NCBI GenBank assembly: GCA_000503915.1
Contig: CP006915.1
Location: 150,001 to 182,000, forward strand
Source of the DNA: Candidatus Saccharimonadota bacterium
Lineage (GTDB): Bacteria; Patescibacteriota; Saccharimonadia; Saccharimonadales; Saccharimonadaceae
Direction of reading: 5' to 3'
DNA: 32,000 nt
The notes beneath the pieces are model-generated. The model saw only the letters and a program-made list of their open reading frames with translations. It was not told the DNA's origin and made no database searches. A program made the translations under genes and the position numbers. Of this stretch, positions 15,437 to 21,454 are shown one piece after another (position 1 is the stretch's first letter; every line of letters begins with the position of its first letter).

Positions 15437-15519
15437 AATAGAAAACTCCGAATATTATACTAGCTCTCCCTATATTTTATCAGAAAAAACGCTAGTTGCC
15501 GACCCCTACCCCCCCTGGG

Positions 15520-16059
15520 CTAATTGATCCAAAGAAGCCAGTTGTTTTCCGTCAGATACCACCCAAATGAGTAGTAATACACCCCGCCATCAAAACCACT
15601 ACCACAGCTAGCTTGCGCTGTGCCAGAAGTCGTCGTTGAATTACCTGATTCGCTCCGATATATAAATACTGTCCCGGATTTACTTTTGGCCGCTACCGCA
15701 TACGCGGGAGATCCTGATTTGAGACCTTCGCAGTACCATAGATTATCCTGAGTGAGAAGATAGGCAGATTTTGTCGGCGAGAAAGTAACGCCTTGGAAAT
15801 ACCGGCCGCTTCCGTTGCTTCGCATTCCGGCCGGAGGCACACCGTCAATTTCAACTTCACGAAGCTTAATCTTCTTCACTAATGAATTCACATCAGACTG
15901 GATAGCTGCGTCATTGGTACGATTTTGAATGCCATTATACGCCACGATGGTGATGGCTGCCAAAATTGCAATGACAACGATTACAATCAGAAGCTCGACG
16001 ATAGTGAAACCCCGCGACTGGTGGCTATCTCTATAATCTAGAGTGCCCACGCAGCCCAT
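15520..16059 (-). CDS. Type IV pilin-like protein (prepilin N-terminal methylation domain)
   Basis: Sequence ...SRG|FTIVELLIVIVVIAILAAITIVAYNGIQNR. Overlaps the upstream pilin by 22 nt. GTG 16050 is an alternative start. Confidence 0.82.
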   Translation of the reverse strand: MGCVGTLDYRDSHQSRGFTIVELLIVIVVIAILAAITIVAYNGIQNRTNDAAIQSDVNSLVKKIKLREVEIDGVPPAGMRSNGSGRYFQGVTFSPTKSAYLLTQDNLWYCEGLKSGSPAYAVAAKSKSGTVFIYRSESGNSTTTSGTAQASCGSGFDGGVYYYSFGWYLTENNWLLWIN

Positions 16060-16526
16060 ACCCCTGTATTTGACAACCCCGTTTGCACGGTCGAATCAGT
16101 TCCGTAGGTGATTCCAACGACATTACAAATGGGCGTGGCACTCATTGAAATATTTCCGAGATTACCAATGCCTTTTGAAGAAGTGTAATATACTGTACCC
16201 GACTTGGAGCGACCGGCAAATACATACTTATCACTGGCACTGGTCTGGGTGCAGTAATAAAGATTGTAGTAACTTGTATTGTACGCTGATTGACTCGCCC
16301 GCACTCCAAGCGTAGATAGCTCTGAGACAGCTACTGGGTACCTTCCATTATCAACGTTGAACAGCTCGGTTTTCTTCGAATAATTTGCTAGGTCTGTCTG
16401 AACGGCGGTATCATTCGCTCGATTTTGAATGCCATTGTACGCCACGATGGTGATTGCTGCCAAAATCGCGATCACCACGATGACGATCAGCAGTTCGACG
16501 ATAGTGAAACCTTTTTGATACCGCAT
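16038..16526 (-). CDS. Type IV pilin
   Basis: MRYQKG|FTIVELLIVIVVIAILAAITIVAYNGIQNR, 162 aa, immediately downstream of comEC. Confidence 0.88.
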   Translation of the reverse strand: MRYQKGFTIVELLIVIVVIAILAAITIVAYNGIQNRANDTAVQTDLANYSKKTELFNVDNGRYPVAVSELSTLGVRASQSAYNTSYYNLYYCTQTSASDKYVFAGRSKSGTVYYTSSKGIGNLGNISMSATPICNVVGITYGTDSTVQTGLSNTGVWAAWAL

Positions 16527-16565
16527 GTGCTTATAGAATACCCTGTTCGCACACGGATGACAATC

Positions 16566-18020
16566 TTACTCCACAAGGTTAGTATCTCGTAGGCTCAGTC
16601 GCGTACGCCACCACATATACATTCCAAGGCATAGTATTCCCGCATACATCAGTAGCGCCTGCCAGCCAGAGATGCTTATTTCCGTCTTCGCCCATGGCAA
16701 GTCGGCCATATACGTCGCAACACTCGTCATGTAGTGAAGAAGGAGGGTAGCCGGCATGCCGACAATCACCGCGAACGCAGGAATTGTTATTACCCCAACG
16801 CCAGCAATAAATGTCAGTAACATAGCGAGCGGCACCAAAGGCAGCACCAGCAGGTTGGCGATAATCGCCACATTACTGACGTAGCCAAAAGTGATGATCA
16901 AGATAGGTAGTGTGCACAACCAGGCTGCCATTGTTTCGCCTAGAATTTGTCGGACAGTGCCTGGTTTTTCTGGGCCAAAGAAGTATGCCTGTAATAAAGG
17001 AGCGAGTAACATAACGCCACCAAATGCTGCAAAGCTGAGCTGCCAGCCGACGTCGCCCCATGCGTAGCTCGGGTTAAACAGAACAGTCGTAGCGACGGCG
17101 ATGCTCAGCAGGATCACCGGGTGGAATTTACGACCGTAGTACCATGCTAGTAGGCCAAGCCCCGCCACTAACCCAGCACGACTCATACTAGGGCTAAGGC
17201 CAGTAACAGCGACAAAGGCAGCTATGAGACTGCCCGACATCAGTGCAGCCAGATACTTAGACACGCGGGCAAACAACCGACGGGCAAGCCGTACCAAGAT
17301 CGTCAGGTTATAGCCACTAGCAACAACGATATGGGTCAATCCGGCTGCCTGCAGTGCGTTATCCAAATCCGAAGGCAAATTACGCCGCTGCCCCACCAAG
17401 TAGCCAACACCCAGACTAGCTTCTGGCTCTGGAATTGCTCTTCTGACTGCATCGCTGAACCAATTCCGCACGACAAGTGCCACATCGCCCGGTTCTGCTC
17501 GCTCGACTTTCTGTATATCTGTCCGGTACATTGCCCCAGCAAAAGTCCCGAAGCCCTTTTGCAATTTTCCTTCCGCTACTATGCGGTCACTACGCCAGAT
17601 TTCTCCCTCGTCACTCACCGTTACCCACAACGTTCCGGGCAGCAAGTGATCGCCAAAATGTATATCTCTTAACCGCAGCACCGCGTTACCCTGCTTGTCG
17701 ACATCCATATCTTCACTCACGGTCGCCGACAGTTGAATGGTCTTTTCGTATAGTCCGTCGTAAGCGTGCAACGAGACCTGCTCAATCTGCCCGCGCCATA
17801 ATCCGACAAGCAGACCTCCCACTATTGCTACCGGCAGCATAAAGACTTGCTGTTTATAGATGGCAACCAGACCCAGCATGACGCCAGTAAGCAACCACGA
17901 TACCGAGGTAAACCACCATGGCACCACGGGTGCAAGCACTACCCCGCCAAAGACACCGGCGCCCGCCAGACAGATGTGCCACGACGCATGAACCGAGCGG
18001 CGAAGGTAGTACCACTTCAT
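16566..18020 (-). CDS. comEC: ComEC/Rec2 DNA internalization channel, short form (no metallo-beta-lactamase domain)
   Basis: Polytopic membrane protein with an OB-like N-terminal insert and the competence-domain motif AGLTHIVVASGYNLTIL. Start ATG 18020 lies behind TATACT. The ORF-track extension to 18074 runs through a terminator hairpin. Confidence 0.85.
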   Translation of the reverse strand: MKWYYLRRSVHASWHICLAGAGVFGGVVLAPVVPWWFTSVSWLLTGVMLGLVAIYKQQVFMLPVAIVGGLLVGLWRGQIEQVSLHAYDGLYEKTIQLSATVSEDMDVDKQGNAVLRLRDIHFGDHLLPGTLWVTVSDEGEIWRSDRIVAEGKLQKGFGTFAGAMYRTDIQKVERAEPGDVALVVRNWFSDAVRRAIPEPEASLGVGYLVGQRRNLPSDLDNALQAAGLTHIVVASGYNLTILVRLARRLFARVSKYLAALMSGSLIAAFVAVTGLSPSMSRAGLVAGLGLLAWYYGRKFHPVILLSIAVATTVLFNPSYAWGDVGWQLSFAAFGGVMLLAPLLQAYFFGPEKPGTVRQILGETMAAWLCTLPILIITFGYVSNVAIIANLLVLPLVPLAMLLTFIAGVGVITIPAFAVIVGMPATLLLHYMTSVATYMADLPWAKTEISISGWQALLMYAGILCLGMYMWWRTRLSLRDTNLVE

Positions 18021-18026
18021 GAAGTT

Positions 18027-18032
18027 AGTATA
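18027..18032 (-). promoter_or_regulatory. -10 box TATACT 6 nt upstream of the comEC ATG (leaderless-type)
   Basis: Minus strand reads ggctgTATACTaacttcATG. Confidence 0.5.
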
Positions 18033-18046
18033 CAGCCACAATACAA

Positions 18047-18079
18047 GAAAAATGACCTGCGATCCGCAGGTCATTTTTC
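18047..18079 (-). terminator. Strong hairpin terminator closing the tRNA locus (bidirectional in form)
   Basis: GAAAAATGACCTGCG-GAT-CGCAGGTCATTTTTC forms a 15-bp perfect stem with U-runs on both strands. It starts 2 nt after the outer tRNA-like CCA. Confidence 0.85.
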
Positions 18080-18081
18080 TA

Positions 18082-18101
18082 TGGAGGGTTCAGTGGGGCT
18101 T
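18082..18101 (-). other. 3' piece of the outer tRNA-Lys-like gene (end of T-loop, T-stem, acceptor 3' strand, discriminator, CCA)
   Basis: Minus strand AAGCCCCACTGAACCCTCCA matches the last 20 nt of the intact tRNA-Lys at 19/20. The one difference (G to A) restores pairing with GGGTTCA at 18358-18364. Confidence 0.75.
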
Positions 18102-18107
18102 GGCTTT

Positions 18108-18127
18108 ATTCGATCCTAAACTTTGGA
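18108..18127. repeat. Inverted-repeat arm flanking tRNA-Lys (trailer; includes discriminator + CCA)
   Basis: Plus strand attcgatcctaaactttgga versus the reverse complement of 18202-18221, attcgataataaactttgga: 18/20 identical. Confidence 0.9.
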
Positions 18128-18200
18128 GGGTCCAGTGGGGCTTGAACCCACGACACCCTGCTTAAAAGGCAGGTGCTCTAACCAGCTGAGCTATGGACCC
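18124..18200 (-). tRNA. tRNA-Lys (anticodon UUU), CCA encoded
   Basis: Hand-folded cloverleaf GGGTCCA-TA-GCTC-AGCTGGTTA-GAGC-A-CCTGC-CTTTTAA-GCAGG-GTGTC-GTGGG-TTCAAGC-CCCAC-TGGACCC-T-CCA. All four stems are perfect. Confidence 0.93.
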
Positions 18201-18201
18201 G

Positions 18202-18221
18202 TCCAAAGTTTATTATCGAAT
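18202..18221. repeat. Inverted-repeat arm flanking tRNA-Lys (leader)
   Basis: Pairs with 18108-18127. Together with the acceptor stem it gives a quasi-continuous helix of about 27 bp with one bulged C (18201). Confidence 0.9.
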
Positions 18222-18227
18222 TTTTAA

Positions 18228-18364
18228 TGAACCTACGACTCTCAGAAGTCCACTGGACTTCTTCGCCCTGCTTAAAAGGCAGGTGCCCCCTATCTGTCTG
18301 ACAGGACGGGCAGGTCTAACCAGCTGCCTGCCCGCCTTGCACGGCAGGCGGGAGCTATGAACCC
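18228..18364 (-). pseudogene. 5' part of the outer tRNA-Lys-like gene (acceptor 5' strand through mid T-loop) with three hairpin insertions
   Basis: Minus strand reads GGGTTCATAGCTC-[26 nt]-CAGCTGGTTAGA-[28 nt]-GCACCTGCCTTTTAAGCAGGG-[26 nt]-GTCGTAGGTTCA. The conserved blocks are identical or nearly identical to tRNA-Lys 18124-18200 and collinear with it. Whether it is a dead gene or a functional RNA is unknown. Confidence 0.7.
18327..18352. repeat. 26-nt GC-rich hairpin element, copy 1 (inside the D-loop of the outer tRNA-like gene)
   Basis: Plus strand CCTGCCCGCC-TTGCAC-GGCAGGCGGG. Its inverted partner is 18635-18660 (23/26). A partial third copy, GGACGGGCAGG, lies at 18304-18314. Confidence 0.85.
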
Positions 18365-18603
18365 GTAATACGTTTCTGCAAAGCATCTCTTGCAGTGCCA
18401 CTGCGTTTTACAGTATGTTCACGTTTTATAGCAAGCTCTTTGGAATTATACGCTTCGTAGTAGATTAGTTCAAGAGGTCGCCTCTGTTTTGTAGCGGGAA
18501 CCTGTCCAGTGTTATGGAGCTCAAATCGCCTTCTAAGATCCGTCGTTTGTCCGTAATACAATTTACTATCTTTTTGTGAGCGTAAAACGTAAAAATAATA
18601 CAT
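18355..18603 (-). CDS. GIY-YIG nuclease family protein (small, UPF0213/YhbQ-like)
   Basis: 82 aa with YYFYVLRS...LYYGQTTDLRRRFELHN...YYEAY, which supply the GIY / YIG / Arg / Glu motifs. The last codons and the TAG stop lie inside the tRNA-like GGGTTCATAGCTC. Confidence 0.8.
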   Translation of the reverse strand: MYYFYVLRSQKDSKLYYGQTTDLRRRFELHNTGQVPATKQRRPLELIYYEAYNSKELAIKREHTVKRSGTARDALQKRITGS

Positions 18604-18634
18604 AACTTACACTATATTCTACACGAGAGGTAGG

Positions 18635-18660
18635 CCCGCCTGCCACGCATGGCGGGCAGG
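18635..18660. repeat. 26-nt GC-rich hairpin element, copy 2 (directly after the stop of the 18661-19146 gene)
   Basis: Plus strand CCCGCCTGCC-ACGCAT-GGCGGGCAGG. It folds as a 6+3 bp stem with one bulge, and no U-run follows it on the minus strand. Confidence 0.85.
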
Positions 18661-19146
18661 TCAATGTTTGCTGCTGCGCGGATAGCGTCGGCCGGTGTGC
18701 GTCGCCACGAGATCGAGCACCGCCAGGATAAGACCAATGGTCACGATATAGACCTGGTTTTCAGCAAAGAAATCATAGATAACTTTACCTTGCCCCTGTA
18801 ACACAAGTGCCGAACCAAGTGGCTCGATCAAAAGTGCGAAGGCAAGCGCTGCAAATAGGGTTGCTCCTACTAGACGTAGTGGTGCTTCTCGGTAACTTGG
18901 CCCGCTAAATAACAGAACTATTGCCGGCAGCAACACTAATGCCACTGATACGATAGTGATTAGCGGAGGACGGGCGACAGAAAGCCCAGCTTCTGCAACA
19001 AGCGGTGTCAACTTGTCCGCCCAAAGTTCACTGAGCATCGAGCCGGCCGCAAGAGCGAGGCCAAGCGCCCCGAATTTCCGCTTAGTGAAATACGCGAGTC
19101 CAAAAAGTAGTGCCAAGACGACAACGAAGACGATTGCAACGTTCAT
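18661..19146 (-). CDS. Integral membrane protein, four predicted TM helices, unknown function
   Basis: 161 aa and highly hydrophobic. ATG 19146 lies directly behind TGcTATACTaaaggc. Confidence 0.6.
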   Translation of the reverse strand: MNVAIVFVVVLALLFGLAYFTKRKFGALGLALAAGSMLSELWADKLTPLVAEAGLSVARPPLITIVSVALVLLPAIVLLFSGPSYREAPLRLVGATLFAALAFALLIEPLGSALVLQGQGKVIYDFFAENQVYIVTIGLILAVLDLVATHTGRRYPRSSKH

Positions 19147-19152
19147 GCCTTT

Positions 19153-19161
19153 AGTATAGCA
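19153..19161 (-). promoter_or_regulatory. Extended -10 TGcTATACT 6 nt upstream of ATG 19146 (leaderless-type)
   Basis: Minus strand reads acTGcTATACTaaaggcATG. Confidence 0.5.
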
Positions 19162-19185
19162 GTATGGCCGATAAAACGCGGTAGC

Positions 19186-20091
19186 CTATGCGCCGATTTT
19201 GTCTTTTTTCGGACGGCGTTTGGCATTTTGCTCGATATACTCGATGATCTTCTCGGCTACATTGCGCTTAGTAATAAGCTCGGGGGTCTTAATGCTTGCA
19301 CTCGAGTTTACTTCGAGCACCAGCGGACCACGTTCCGAGCGCATCATGTCGACGCCACAGATAGGCAGACCCATGGCCTTCGCAGCCTTCAGAGCTGTCT
19401 TTCGCTCTTCTTCGGTCAGCTTCACCGGCACGCCTTCACCACCTTGGTGAGTGTTGCTACGAAAATCGCCGTCCAGGCTTTGGCGCTTGACGCTCGCGAC
19501 CACGCGGCCACCAACGACTAATGCACGGATATCGGTACCGGCTGATTCTTTGATAAATTCTTGCACCAAAAAATTCACGCCTTCGACATAGAAAGCCTGC
19601 ATTACGGCCTTGGCTGCCTTCGGGGTTTCAGCTAGTACTACACCGTTACCGTGAGTACCGCGTGCTACCTTAATAATCAGCGGTGTACCGCCGGCAAGCT
19701 CGATAATGTCATCGAAACTAGCTGACTCACGGGCAAAAACGGTCTTTGGAATGCCGACTCCCGCTTTTGCCAGCACCTGATAAGCACGGAGTTTATCGCG
19801 TGAACGATTAATCGCCAGTGATGTCGCCGTCGTGAACGACCCTTGCGCCTCAAATTGGCGCACAATCGCGGTACCGTATTTGGTGTAGCTCTGAGCAATC
19901 CGTGGTATTATTGCATCAAAATGGCCGAGGCTCTCACCTTTGTAGCGCACTACTGAGTTATTTTTTTCAATTGCCGTATAGGCATCCTTATACTTGATGA
20001 TCTTGACTTCGTGGCCTCGCTTCACCACCTCCTCTTTGAGACGCTTGGTGGTGTAGTTTCCTGGTCCATTGCTTAAAATCGCGATTTTCAT
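19186..20091 (-). CDS. rimK: Ribosomal protein S6--L-glutamate ligase RimK (ATP-grasp)
   Basis: 301 aa, collinear with E. coli RimK from memory (MKIAILS...HFDAIIPRI...GTHGNGVVLAE...DIRALVVGG...GDFRSNTHQGG...GVDMMRSERGPLVLEVN). Confidence 0.92.
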   Translation of the reverse strand: MKIAILSNGPGNYTTKRLKEEVVKRGHEVKIIKYKDAYTAIEKNNSVVRYKGESLGHFDAIIPRIAQSYTKYGTAIVRQFEAQGSFTTATSLAINRSRDKLRAYQVLAKAGVGIPKTVFARESASFDDIIELAGGTPLIIKVARGTHGNGVVLAETPKAAKAVMQAFYVEGVNFLVQEFIKESAGTDIRALVVGGRVVASVKRQSLDGDFRSNTHQGGEGVPVKLTEEERKTALKAAKAMGLPICGVDMMRSERGPLVLEVNSSASIKTPELITKRNVAEKIIEYIEQNAKRRPKKDKIGA

Positions 20092-20568
20092 TTATTCGTT
20101 CTCCAGTTCAGATTGTAATTCTTCAAACCGCACTTGATCATTCACCGATAATTTCTTCGAGCCATGCTGCACATCAACAATGAACTTACCAGCTAATGTA
20201 TTACGTCCAATTAAAATCGGAAACGCTTGGGTTTGACGATTCGCTAACGTACATTTTGTACGAACTCTTCTTCCCTTTAATTGTAACGTAATAGGAATCA
20301 AATAACGAACTTCTTTGTGTCCAGTTGAGTTTGCAACAACACGTTTTTTATAGCTTTTACTATGAAATAATTGTCCTGTGTAGAATGGCGAGTCTTTACC
20401 AAAAAACGACCATGATAAAATGCCATCTTCTTCAGATAGACTGCTCGCCCATATAGCTGTAGTTCGTGCACCGGTGTCAATGCGTGCTGGCACCTTCTTT
20501 TGATTTGTTGGCACAATCCAAACGTATTCTAGGCGACCAATGATTAATTTAGATTTTTGCTTGCTCAC
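20092..20568 (-). CDS. Retropepsin-like aspartic peptidase, DUF785 / RimB-like (historically annotated 'putative ATP-dependent zinc protease')
   Basis: 158 aa with GTG start. The DTGA motif (ARIDTGARTT) lies at aa 31-34. The stop abuts the rimK start with 0 nt gap. Confidence 0.65.
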   Translation of the reverse strand: MSKQKSKLIIGRLEYVWIVPTNQKKVPARIDTGARTTAIWASSLSEEDGILSWSFFGKDSPFYTGQLFHSKSYKKRVVANSTGHKEVRYLIPITLQLKGRRVRTKCTLANRQTQAFPILIGRNTLAGKFIVDVQHGSKKLSVNDQVRFEELQSELENE

Positions 20569-21454
20569 CGATCAATTCCTTCAGCATTTCCGCATACTTT
20601 TCTAGCTTCTCTTCCATAAATGAACCTGATGAAACTTGTGGAGCTTGATTTACCTCTAAAATATACGGTGTCTGCGTCTTTGCATCCAAAATAATGTCAA
20701 CGCCAGCCACTTCCAGCTTTTCTATTCTACTTGCCTCTACACACATATTGAGGAGCTTCTGGTCAAATGATGATAAGTCAATCAGCTCCGCCGTGCCGCC
20801 TTTTGAGGTATTGTTTAGATATTCACCCTGTCCGGCGGTTCGCTTAATCACTAATACGGGTCTAAAATTAAATACGAGCACTCGATAATCGCCTTTATTC
20901 GGGATGAGTTCTTGCAACACAAACTTCGTGTTGTCATGCTTTGCCAGAATATCCTGTAGCTCTGCCCGCGAGCTTACGGCATAGTTCTTCTCACCCTTAA
21001 ATCCATGGTTGTCTTTGACAACTGCCTTTGGTGCAAATTCATCAAAACGCCGAATCATCTCATCGTGATTACCAAATAACGTGTGAGGCACAGGAAGGTT
21101 AACCGACCAGTGAAGGAAAGATGCACTCATCTTATCAAGTGTTGGGCGATTTAAGTACGAGTCTATATACTTTACCCCCTTCTTTTCGCAATATATCGTA
21201 ATTGCTCGGGCTTCTTCGATGAAAGTACTGACATGGCGAAATACGACCAAGTCAAAATCTGCTACATCAAAAAGTTTAGTAGGGTGATAAATTCGTGCAC
21301 TATCAGTAGACACATCAAAAAAAAGCTCGTCAATATCGCTGCATTCCACCTCTATAGCATCATGCAGTTGCTCCGCCAGACGTTTGGCAAATGTAAATGA
21401 CTTTGCGTCATTACTCCTGTCTCTGTTGTGATGGAGCAATAGGGTTTTCTTCAT
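20549..21454 (-). CDS. Second ATP-grasp ligase, RimK-related
   Basis: 301 aa. The C-terminal half has ATP-grasp motifs (KGDYRVLVF, SKGGTAELIDL, AGVDIILD...YILEVNQAPQ). Its end overlaps the next gene by 20 nt. Confidence 0.68.
   Translation of the reverse strand: MKKTLLLHHNRDRSNDAKSFTFAKRLAEQLHDAIEVECSDIDELFFDVSTDSARIYHPTKLFDVADFDLVVFRHVSTFIEEARAITIYCEKKGVKYIDSYLNRPTLDKMSASFLHWSVNLPVPHTLFGNHDEMIRRFDEFAPKAVVKDNHGFKGEKNYAVSSRAELQDILAKHDNTKFVLQELIPNKGDYRVLVFNFRPVLVIKRTAGQGEYLNNTSKGGTAELIDLSSFDQKLLNMCVEASRIEKLEVAGVDIILDAKTQTPYILEVNQAPQVSSGSFMEEKLEKYAEMLKELIGEQAKI

Follow-up and report, generated by a model that had tools for sequence, protein, structure and literature searches.

Small single-domain GIY-YIG proteins of the Ssn type are flanked by their own hairpin repeats and were shown experimentally to be hairpin-guided nucleases of single-strand DNA (Chenal et al. 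2025, PMC11893778). In the CPR, insertions in rRNA genes encode GIY-YIG proteins, which are sparse and stand outside a homing context (PMC11270868), and the tRNA gene cluster of phage T4 carries SegB, a free-standing GIY-YIG homing endonuclease (PMC2330249). Split tRNAs have been described in archaea (PMC2237900). Our literature search found no earlier account of a bacterial tRNA nested in another tRNA, in agreement with the earlier note on this DNA, whose author knew of none. Two further systems serve for comparison: integrase-borne islands and prophages, which enter tRNA genes and bring a replacement tRNA end, and the split, permuted and multi-intron tRNA genes of archaea, from which a dedicated endonuclease and a ligase yield working tRNAs.

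The single tRNA found by ARAGORN and Rfam in the window (the whole 32-kb stretch of DNA analysed here) is tRNA-Lys(UUU) at 18200-18124 (-), which has a complete cloverleaf and anticodon and scores 71.5 bits against RF00005 (gathering threshold: 29 bits). As the earlier note had proposed, this intact gene is nested in the T loop of an outer tRNA-Lys, of which five colinear blocks, interrupted by four insertions, extend over 18364-18082 of the minus strand. The agent that the earlier note had missed is a hairpin-flanked GIY-YIG gene that overlaps nt 1-10 of the outer tRNA. The features, 5' to 3' on the minus strand, are:

18635-18660 (-), hairpin A (CCTGCCCGCCATGCGTGGCAGGCGGG), 26 nt, upstream of the ORF; left boundary of the cassette
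18611-18621 (-), -10-like hexamers TAGAAT/TATAGT, read from the sequence, 8-13 nt 5' of the GIY-YIG ATG
18355-18603 (-), GIY-YIG nuclease ORF, 82 aa (Pfam PF01541, E = 8e-16)
18352-18364 (-), outer block 1, nt 1-13, GGGTTCATAGCTC
18326-18351 (-), insertion 1, hairpin B, hairpin A copied in inverted orientation (23/26 nt identical to its opposite strand)
18315-18325 (-), outer block 2, nt 14-23, AGCTGGTTAGA
18287-18314 (-), insertion 2, hairpin C, a degenerate member of the hairpin A family
18266-18286 (-), outer block 3, nt 24-44, anticodon arm, with the same sequence as in the inner tRNA
18240-18265 (-), insertion 3 (variable loop), hairpin D (AGAAGTCC-AGT-GGACTTCT)
18228-18239 (-), outer block 4, nt 46-57, GTCGTAGGTTCA; 5' strand of the T stem, mismatched at an A.C pair, and the T loop up to its middle
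18201-18227 (-), TTAAAA, then ATTCGATAATAAACTTTGGA (left arm of the stalk) and a single C; the 5' leader native to the resident tRNA-Lys gene
18124-18200 (-), inner tRNA-Lys(UUU), intact (ARAGORN and Rfam); presumed working gene
18102-18127 (-), right stalk arm TCCAAAGTTTAGGATCGAAT and AAAGCC; trailer of the resident tRNA
18082-18101 (-), outer block 5, nt 57/58 to CCA, AAGCCCCACTGAACCCTCCA; rest of the T loop, 3' T stem, 3' acceptor strand, discriminator and CCA
18046-18080 (-), intrinsic terminator, a 16-bp stem followed by a T run, 1 nt after the outer CCA

The outer blocks were found in the order and at the positions previously read from the sequence. Joined, they form 77 nt that ARAGORN called as tRNA-Lys(UUU) and that differ from the inner tRNA at three positions (C5U, G51A and G68A); this call was obtained only after manual removal of the four insertions. 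The gene as it stands gave no second RF00005 match in 17950-18750 by cmscan, even at E <= 10; the covariance-model check proposed earlier thus recognised the inner tRNA and failed to recognise the outer gene. The claims that the outer acceptor strands are fully complementary (7/7 pairs, with pair 5-68 compensated), that the outer anticodon arm is identical to the inner one and that the outer T stem has an A.C mismatch all held. The placement of all four insertions in loops did not hold for insertion 2, which lies between nt 23 and 24 and splits the 3' strand of the D stem. The T-loop insert measures 126 nt and contains the inner tRNA-Lys on its stalk. Folded in silico, the 283 nt adopted a minimum-free-energy structure (z = -7.1) in which the outer acceptor strands were paired and the hairpins, the stalk and the inner cloverleaf were present; each insertion can fold on itself, as the earlier note had stated. 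No Rfam match was obtained at permissive thresholds for the inserts in the window, L217, L018, L003, L047, L087 and L026.

The two stalk arms, 18221-18202 and 18127-18108 (-), are indeed complementary at 18 of 20 positions (chance expectation in shuffles: 0.00-0.03), and the first 4 nt of the right arm are the discriminator and CCA of the inner tRNA. The same 27 nt (TTAAAA, left arm and C) precede tRNA-Lys in L217, in L093 and in L182, where the cassette is absent; the trailer also follows a 3' remnant of tRNA-Lys in L218 and is present in L217 with one change. Judged by these alleles, the stalk is not an end of the cassette: its left arm is a native leader (L182) and its right arm trails a tRNA-Lys 3' remnant (L218). 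A metagenome scan with the stalk arm (CCAAAGTTTANNATCGAA) was too loose, returning 120 matches, mostly due to chance, with L182 as the only true relative. The terminator, previously described as a 15-bp stem 2 nt downstream, proved to have a 16-bp stem and to start 1 nt after the CCA; it closes the transcription unit before the comEC promoter is reached. In L003, the intact GIY-YIG-fused tRNA has a homologous terminator (AGAAAAAT...ATTTTTCTT) directly 3' of it.

In the GIY-YIG protein, PF01541 spans residues 1-68 and no other domain was detected. The protein is 100% identical to a protein of RAAC3_TM7_1, and its nearest solved structures are UPF0213 proteins (E = 7e-7); no informative name for its family came from NCBIfam, PHROGs or a plasmid search. 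All columns of the catalytic motif are invariant, and dN/dS against L217 is 0.155, showing that the gene is under purifying selection. Its last three codons and stop coincide with nt 1-10 of the outer tRNA, the stop being U8-A9-G10.

The ORF is bracketed by hairpin A (18660-18635) and its inverted copy (18352-18327), an arrangement with an expectation of 0 by chance. The 32-kb window has only three copies of this hairpin, all of them at the GIY-YIG/tRNA-Lys locus; that insertions 1 and 2 are copies of the hairpin upstream of the ORF had also escaped the earlier note. Hairpin A lies immediately 3' of the TGA that ends the upstream gene, which encodes a membrane protein; it occupies the matching place in L002, L003, L093, L096 and L217, and it is missing after the same TTGAC in L182 and L222. 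In a small sample of ten hairpin copies, the 5' flank was TTGA, CTGA, TAGA, TGTA or CTG, with no target duplication. We regard the hexamers TAGAAT/TATAGT as the putative promoter of the cassette, although a consensus promoter scan made no call at 18611-18621, since a -35 element is absent; TGTAAAAT is found at the matching place in L217 and also upstream of the tRNA in L182. GIY-YIG is the only ORF between the paired hairpins, where no HUH/Y1 transposase was found. No tyrosine or serine recombinase was detected in 15500-21000; for this reason, and because the T-loop insert is 126 nt long, we rejected an integrase island as the origin of the structure.

Relatives carry several alleles of the locus. 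In L003 and L095, with the same neighbours and a GIY-YIG protein 80% identical to that of the window, the ORF is fused to an intact tRNA-Lys(UUU), followed by the homologous terminator and then by a displaced 3' fragment (nt 59-77). In L005 and L007 (69% identity), where the neighbours are different, the ORF is joined to an intact tRNA-Lys(CUU), after which come copies made up of nt 8-24, a hairpin and nt 25-77; this hairpin is of the family of insertion 2 and interrupts tRNA-Lys at exactly the position of that insertion. L217, the closest relative, which comes from another sample (ComEC 95.5% identical), spans the whole nested structure with the junctions of the window and an inner tRNA identical at 77 of 77 positions; its outer tRNA has lost the D arm (nt 11-25) together with hairpins B and C and has gained an extra 80-nt insertion, and hairpin D is 100% conserved. 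The comparison with relatives that the earlier note had called for thus gave three outcomes: a plain intact tRNA-Lys in some of them (L003, L005), nesting in L217 and no cassette in L182. The same design recurs at a tRNA-Trp gene in L018, where ORF and tRNA are fused, the D-region site of insertion 1 is occupied by an inverted hairpin of matching family and orientation, and the T loop holds an insertion that can be aligned with hairpin D, its stem changes being compensatory; a near-identical variant of the insertion 2 hairpin is present as well. Compared with those of L003, the host proteins that flank the cassette in the window show 33% and 52% identity. Judged by these identities, the cassette is far better conserved than the host genes, which shows that it spreads horizontally, and its presence at the locus, or that of its hairpin, is polymorphic (L182 and L222 are without it).

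The association with tRNA genes extends beyond tRNA-Lys. A same-strand tRNA starts between -15 and +150 nt from the ORF end in 24-27 of 80 homologous loci, compared to ~0.4 expected, i.e. about 60-fold above expectation, and in seven of the 80 loci the stop codon coincides with nt 8-10 of the tRNA. In at least 14 loci, a second copy of the 5' part of the adjoining tRNA lies upstream of the ORF, and its D or anticodon loop usually holds a G+C-rich hairpin. These data are best read as identifying tRNA genes as the dwelling of the GIY-YIG/hairpin cassette in Saccharibacteria and other ultra-small bacteria.

The locus probably houses a small, mobile and selfish cassette of GIY-YIG gene and hairpins, Ssn-like and directed at tRNA genes, the outer tRNA being its scar and the inner tRNA the copy that works. 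The analysis shows the anatomy, the homology of the hairpins, the cassette-free and un-nested alleles and the recurrence of the same design at many other tRNA genes. The cassette would have three parts: a hairpin repeat rich in G+C (CCTGCCCG...CAGGCGGG), a short region with the promoter, and the gene for the 82-aa single-domain protein, whose frame enters the tRNA-Lys gene and ends at U8-A9-G10. In this lineage the nuclease-fused tRNA copy would be dead, with two cassette hairpins in its D region, a third, cassette-associated one in its variable loop, and its T loop split by 126 nt that we take for the resident tRNA-Lys(UUU) between its own native leader and trailer, which are complementary to each other; the inner gene would then be the source of the cell's tRNA-Lys(UUU). 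By analogy with the Ssn family, the nuclease may bind its own hairpins in single-stranded DNA and cut beside them. Such cuts in the folded DNA of tRNA genes, followed by recombination repair, could give rise to partial duplications, hairpin insertions and nesting. The locus is probably read as one transcript from the cassette promoter to the terminator at 18080-18046, from which RNase P and 3' processing would free the inner tRNA. As to recombination repair, these bacteria carry competence genes. The order of events can be read in two ways, with the resident unit entering the fused copy or the reverse: L003 favours the former, whereas L182 and L222, closer relatives that have no cassette, favour a late arrival of the cassette. 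The earlier proposal that a tRNA-Lys gene was invaded by hairpin elements and that an intact copy came to lie in its T loop is essentially borne out by the comparisons, except that the stalk is not an end of a cassette. Some points count against the cassette explanation. Precise insertion is not accounted for by a nuclease alone, without ligase or integrase activity; and some stretches of the 'dead' copy have changed less than synonymous sites nearby, with compensatory changes in the acceptor stem, which is unlike what simple decay predicts.

Ordinary decay of a tandem or segmental duplicate of tRNA-Lys, with hairpins inserted for unrelated reasons and the GIY-YIG gene as a mere neighbour, seems to us decidedly unlikely. 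The near identity of the two copies, the outer-copy indels that differ among close relatives and the invisibility of the outer copy to cmscan would all fit such a pseudogene, but the inserted hairpins are copies of the one that flanks the nuclease gene, and the ORF-tRNA fusion, the hairpin family and the insertion positions recur at tRNA-Lys and tRNA-Trp genes elsewhere. Nor does tandem duplication yield a nested topology, and chance vicinity does not agree with the ~60-fold excess of tRNA adjacency. Splicing of the archaeal type, by which the four insertions would be removed and the outer gene would give a second functional tRNA-Lys, is highly improbable. The insertion sites (13/14, 23/24, variable loop and T loop) are reminiscent of the non-canonical positions at which Thermoproteales tRNA genes carry introns, and each insertion can fold on itself; yet we know of no bacterial splicing endonuclease of the kind that such introns require, insertion 2 lies within a stem, the outer T stem is mismatched, and the inner gene already provides the same anticodon. 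We rejected this reading on the evidence of L217, whose exons cannot be joined into a complete tRNA because nt 11-25 are missing. An assembly artefact caused by repeated tRNA sequence deserves practically no credence: many metagenome contigs do end ~25 nt after the GIY-YIG stop or within the inner tRNA, but a second, independent assembly of the same reads (L221) is base-for-base identical over 600 nt, and L217 spans the structure with the same junctions in a different sample. The agreement of L221 and L217 led us to reject this candidate.

The second reading of the earlier note, a composite RNA, fared differently in its two parts. A functional composite RNA acting as a tRNA is not supported, given the lost D arm and the 80-nt insertion in L217 and the plain intact tRNAs elsewhere; the acceptor/T helix is compensated in both nested lineages, i.e. 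the window and L217. In a narrowed form, which we consider unlikely, the outer acceptor/T helix would be kept by selection and would enclose the real tRNA in a tRNA-like domain; cutting by RNase P at the outer +1 might strip the last three codons and the stop from the nuclease mRNA and so limit synthesis, or the same fold in single-stranded DNA might be a substrate of the nuclease. The outer acceptor strands pair at 7/7 positions in the window and at 6/7 in L217, the compensated pair differs by lineage (5-68 in the window, 3-70 in L217), and five of the six outer-versus-inner substitutions fall in the 14 acceptor positions of the 89 comparable nt (P ~5e-4). The outer anticodon arm with hairpin D (47 nt) and the stalk region are unchanged at a neighbouring-gene dS of 0.15-0.23, the outer stem is present in the minimum-free-energy folds, and the ORF stops within the tRNA in many relatives. 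Against this, the best fold of L217 is in a shifted register, the outer D arm is dispensable there, the interrupted copies of L005 and L007 have no 5' acceptor strand at all, and the low divergence could reflect recent recombination in a mosaic region (dS of RimK: 1.0). Cluster look-ups found no further members of the nested lineage, so the covariation test asked for in the earlier note revealed compensatory acceptor changes but rests on two lineages; these changes remain unexplained. A bolder version, which is likewise unlikely, makes the interrupted copy a working part of an unrecognised class of tRNA-gene-specific selfish elements. Its outer acceptor/T helix, kept by compensation, would be a tRNA mimic, either on the transcript, where RNase P at the outer +1 would remove the nuclease stop and throttle synthesis, or on single-stranded DNA, where the nuclease would recognise the fold during movement. 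Such an element would persist in a gene that is essential and present only once, since a complete tRNA is always either brought along or retained.

To return to the cassette and its scar, the nested tRNA would be a by-product of a nuclease/hairpin cassette, and the odd locus would be explained without a new RNA species. Small Ssn-like GIY-YIG genes in or against tRNA genes across the CPR and other phyla form a pattern that is undescribed in the literature searched. If confirmed, tRNA genes would be a main habitat of a recently discovered single-strand nuclease family, which would gain a testable biological role beyond Neisseria. The GIY-YIG/tRNA loci also break metagenome assemblies, create tRNA pseudogenes that annotation overlooks, and can mislead tRNA counts in reduced genomes.

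Among the known systems, archaeal interrupted tRNA genes share with the present locus short structured inserts at several loop positions, but here a complete duplicate works and the interrupted copy is variably deleted. Integrase islands likewise leave the target tRNA intact and supply a copy of the displaced part; in L003, L026, L028 and L045, a displaced piece beginning in the T loop is left behind as a direct repeat. In contrast to them, our loci have no integrase and inserts of 40-800 nt, mostly duplicate the 5' part and also have breakpoints in the D and anticodon loops. With IS200/IS605 and REP/RAYT elements, the cassette has in common (sub)terminal hairpins and, as far as ten hairpin copies can tell, a short 5' flank that may be conserved and the absence of target duplication, as well as small palindromic repeats tied to one nuclease gene (PMC11893778), whereas its enzyme is a GIY-YIG protein instead of an HUH/Y1 transposase and has no obvious strand-joining chemistry.

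SegB resembles it as a GIY-YIG gene among tRNA genes that spreads with flanking tRNA sequence and is polymorphic in presence. As for a homing gene, presence varies (L182 and L222) and conservation exceeds that of host genes (80% versus 33-52%). SegB, however, is larger, has a DNA-binding part, cuts double-stranded DNA and sits between genes, whereas here the ORF overlaps the tRNA, hairpin repeats are present, no second, DNA-binding domain was found, and an intact tRNA stands beside the gene in place of a destroyed target. Homing would also meet an immunity problem, since the intact inner tRNA retains any tRNA-borne target. The insertions in CPR rRNA genes occur in the same radiation, place GIY-YIG ORFs in non-intron insertions of structural RNA genes and use sites at the tips or bases of stem-loops (PMC11270868). 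They differ in that the target here is a tRNA gene, with a duplicate of the tRNA or of part of it to preserve function, and in that the ORF stop is U8-A9-G10 of the tRNA.

The cassette further resembles the Ssn systems. The 82-aa protein has a single domain and is shorter than the ~150 aa below which Ssn nucleases fall, compared to 94 aa for N. meningitidis SsnA (PMC11893778). Its gene is bracketed by copies of its own 26-nt hairpin in an insertion-sequence-like arrangement comparable to NTS-ssnA-NTS; the hairpins fall within the 20-50 nt of Ssn repeats on both sides, in L018 as well as in the window, and have what may be a constant 5' flank (TTGA/CTGA/TAGA). A 54%-identical homologue in L040 lies on a contig with canonical NTS repeats, and L040 is the only one of 97 related loci with a match to the published SRM motif (HGTCWY..., PMC11893778), which has none in the window. 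Neisseria has hundreds of NTS copies, whereas the hairpins here are not dispersed through the window. Finally, tRNA is nowhere mentioned in the Ssn paper (PMC11893778), whereas the present GIY-YIG gene adjoins a tRNA gene by fusion or lies embedded within one, and copies of tRNAs are interrupted by hairpins.

The DNA comes from Candidatus Saccharibacteria bacterium RAAC3_TM7_1. The only tRNA recognized by ARAGORN and Rfam in its 32 kb is an intact tRNA-Lys(UUU) (the inner tRNA), which lies between the pieces of a second tRNA-Lys copy (the outer tRNA) fused to a small nuclease gene:

18660-18635, minus strand: hairpin A, 26 nt, CCTGCCCGCCATGCGTGGCAGGCGGG, directly 3' of the upstream membrane-protein gene's stop codon
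18603-18355, minus strand: ORF of 82 aa with a GIY-YIG nuclease domain (domain E = 8e-16)
18364-18352, minus strand: outer tRNA, nt 1-13
18325-18315, minus strand: outer tRNA, nt 14-23
18286-18266, minus strand: outer tRNA, nt 24-44
18239-18228, minus strand: outer tRNA, nt 46-57
18200-18124, minus strand: inner tRNA-Lys(UUU), 71.5 bits
18101-18082, minus strand: outer tRNA, remainder through CCA

All outer blocks named in an earlier note were found, colinear and at the places it gave, and the 20-nt arms flanking the inner gene are complementary at 18 of 20 positions, as it had stated. Joined by hand, the outer blocks form 77 nt that ARAGORN calls as tRNA-Lys(UUU), with C5U, G51A and G68A as the three differences from the inner gene; with its insertions in place, the outer gene gave no match to the covariance model. 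The insertions had been placed in loops throughout, which does not apply to insertion 2, since it splits the 3' strand of the D stem; the terminator reported just after CCA is present, with a stem of 16 bp (not 15) beginning 1 nt (not 2) past CCA. Neither the outer-block repeats nor the stalk arms are expected by chance, and the predicted fold of the 283-nt stretch has the nested shape (z = -7.1). Since a second assembly from the same reads is identical across 600 nt and a relative from a different sample has the same nesting junctions, we conclude that the nested structure is real, which confirms the observation as a whole.

The earlier note had recognized the insertions as hairpins but overlooked the GIY-YIG ORF and the kinship with hairpin A. 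The ORF extends into the outer tRNA, its final codons being outer nt 1-7 and its stop U8-A9-G10. Insertion 1 is an inverted hairpin A (23/26 identical) and insertion 2 a degenerate copy of it. Copies of its own hairpin repeat thus flank the nuclease gene on both sides, hairpin A upstream and these two downstream, and the repeat has struck the outer tRNA twice. The CCTGCCCG hairpin occurs in ten copies, each with TTGA, CTGA, TAGA, TGTA or CTG as 5' flank. Hairpin D, the variable-loop insertion, and its adjoining CCGGAG...GGCGCG... module (window 18240-18265) recur in two homologous loci (L217, 2203-2282; L018, 2818-2902); the sites are the variable loop of fused tRNA-Lys and the T loop of fused tRNA-Trp, with compensatory stem changes. 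Although it has no Rfam match, this is another conserved, structured part of the cassettes.

Comparison with relatives at the same locus gives opposing hints on the order of events. L003/L095 share the synteny and carry hairpin A, the ORF fused to an intact tRNA-Lys(UUU), and a homologous terminator, with a displaced 3' fragment (nt 59-77) ~130 nt past it. The outer 3' end and terminator of the window are orthologous to the end of the intact fused gene of L003, which suggests that the resident unit was inserted into a fused gene. In L182 the cassette of hairpin and nuclease gene is absent: 45 nt separate the membrane gene from TTAAAA, the left arm and C, an exact match to the 5' side of the window inner tRNA, after which comes the same tRNA. 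This identifies the left stalk arm as the resident tRNA gene's native leader. In L218 the right stalk arm follows a tRNA-Lys 3' remnant, and L222 has the same TTGAC with no hairpin A after it. The cassette-free state of these closer relatives, L182 and L222, suggests that the cassette arrived late. The 161-aa membrane protein encoded at 18661-19146 of the window and 1501-1986 of L222 is 100% identical in amino acids and only 85% in nucleotides, reflecting purifying selection unusually strong for a small protein without known domain. Contigs of L001, L002, L006, L008, L011, L093, L094, L096, L182 and L222 end ~25 nt past the GIY-YIG stop or within the tRNA; short-read assemblies break at the repeated tRNA parts, and MAGs therefore probably under-represent loci of this kind.

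The nuclease gene is under purifying selection, with a dN/dS of 0.155 in the comparison of the window with L217. The GIY-YIG protein is 80% identical to that of L003/L095, whereas the flanking membrane protein and ComEC of L003 reach 33% and 52%, and a 69%-identical copy lies at tRNA-Lys(CUU) beside mscL in another genome (L005). Judged by these sequence comparisons, the cassette is mobile and alive. The dS between window and L217 is ~1.0 for RimK, far above the 0.15 of the adjacent membrane gene and 0.23 of comEC. The region is a recombination mosaic; the RimK/RimB-like/RimK triple occupies 19186-21454 (minus strand) in the window and corresponds to 403-1308 in L217. Two tandem type-IV-pilin-like ORFs with a common N-terminal motif GFTIVELLIVIVVIAILAAI (15520-16526 and 16566-18020, minus strand) lie directly downstream of comEC, and this competence/pilus cluster adjoins the nuclease cassette. 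In Neisseria, Ssn nucleases modulate transformation; here the adjacency is probably coincidence, because the related cassette in L005 is beside mscL.

More interesting than the window locus itself is the tRNA association across the family. A scan of species-representative genomes yielded 80 loci with GIY-YIG homologues (48-61% identity), mostly in CPR/Patescibacteria. A same-strand tRNA starts -15 to +150 nt from the ORF end in 24-27 of the 80, against ~0.4 expected, and these tRNAs are Lys, Trp, Val, His, Gln, Ser, Ile, Gly, Pro, Thr, Met and Leu. Seven loci have the ORF stop codon at tRNA nt 8-10. Another 15 have only an upstream same-strand tRNA ending <=300 nt from the ORF, so that 39/80 have a tRNA on either side. 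At least 14 loci carry, just 5' of the ORF, a second copy of the downstream tRNA's 5' part that extends to the D or anticodon loop, and the break usually holds a G+C-rich hairpin insertion; in further loci, T-loop-to-CCA fragments lie downstream or hairpin-interrupted tRNA copies form arrays. Tandem short units of tRNA fragment, G+C-rich hairpin and tRNA 3' end follow the intact tRNA in L026 (2826-3030) and L007 (1877-2013), the hairpin replacing nt 38-56 in tRNA-Trp and lying between nt 24 and 25 in tRNA-Lys(CUU). In L087 a split tRNA-Met copy runs nt 1-32, hairpin, intact tRNA, hairpin, nt 36-76, the same topology as in the window. At tRNA-Trp, L018, from another Saccharibacterium, mirrors the window arrangement: ORF and tRNA are fused, the D region holds an inverted hairpin of the window's family, and the T loop contains an insertion that can be aligned to both hairpin D and the L217 insertion, the stems differing by compensatory changes. 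Perfect 17-22-nt inverted repeats abut the GIY-YIG start and stop codons in L013, L015, L016, L020, L024 and L063; they look like terminal repeats of miniature insertion sequences or an mRNA-enclosing helix.

The proposal that a tRNA-Lys gene was invaded by hairpins, with an intact tRNA cassette in its T loop, is largely right but incomplete. A functional composite RNA is unsupported in the form stated. L217 (with L093/L094), whose ComEC and membrane protein are 95.5% and 99.4% identical to those of the window, shares the nesting junctions, and the inner tRNAs are identical; in its outer copy, nt 11-25 and hairpins B and C (insertions 1 and 2) are gone, and an 80-nt insertion has been gained after hairpin D, so the outer gene is not conserved as a tRNA. 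Simple decay does not fit the acceptor pattern either. Outer acceptor pairing is 7/7 in the window (C5U with G68A) and 6/7 in L217 (G3A with C70U; U4G uncompensated), and the acceptor positions, 14 of the 89 comparable nt, hold five of the six outer-versus-inner substitutions (P ~5e-4). No change is seen in the outer anticodon arm, hairpin D or the stalk, against a dS of 0.15-0.23 in neighbouring genes. The outer helix may have been kept by selection, on RNA or single-stranded DNA, or templated mutation and recent recombination may have produced the pattern; both readings draw on two lineages.

We propose that the nuclease would recognize its own hairpins in single strands, and perhaps also the hairpin-like arms of single-stranded tRNA-gene DNA. 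Nicks or breaks at tRNA loops would be repaired by recombination with other alleles or incoming DNA (comEC and pilin genes adjoin the locus), giving partial duplications, hairpin insertions and, here, a whole resident tRNA unit in the T loop of the fused copy. The cell would tolerate the insertion because it would never lack a complete tRNA-Lys. Transcription of the unit probably runs from -10-like hexamers 5' of the ORF to the terminator (18080-18046), and normal processing would release the inner tRNA. In any ORF-tRNA fusion, an RNase P cut at the 5' end of the tRNA would strip the ORF of its stop codon.

GIY-YIG ORFs are known in non-intron insertions of CPR rRNA genes (PMC11270868), and a GIY-YIG homing endonuclease in the phage T4 tRNA cluster (PMC2330249). 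Provisionally, the literature covered so far, which is incomplete, describes neither small GIY-YIG genes lodged within bacterial tRNA genes nor one tRNA nested inside another. The Ssn family comprises small single-domain GIY-YIG proteins, typically with their own flanking hairpin repeats and insertion-sequence-like, which bind to single-stranded DNA at the hairpin and cleave a few nucleotides upstream of it (Chenal et al. 2025, PMC11893778). A Staskawiczbacteria contig (L040) carries two canonical Neisseria-type NTS repeats TGTCATTCCCGCGAAAGCGGGAATCTAG, at 116 (minus) and 1846 (plus), and a GIY-YIG homologue (2501-2743) with its own, different flanking hairpins (CCTTCA...TGAAGG). The window gene resembles the Ssn family in size, single domain and flanking hairpins; however, the window hairpins do not match the published motif, and the gene is fused to a tRNA, whereas the Ssn paper (PMC11893778) never mentions tRNA. 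By analogy, we regard the window locus as an Ssn-like hairpin/nuclease element specialised for tRNA genes.
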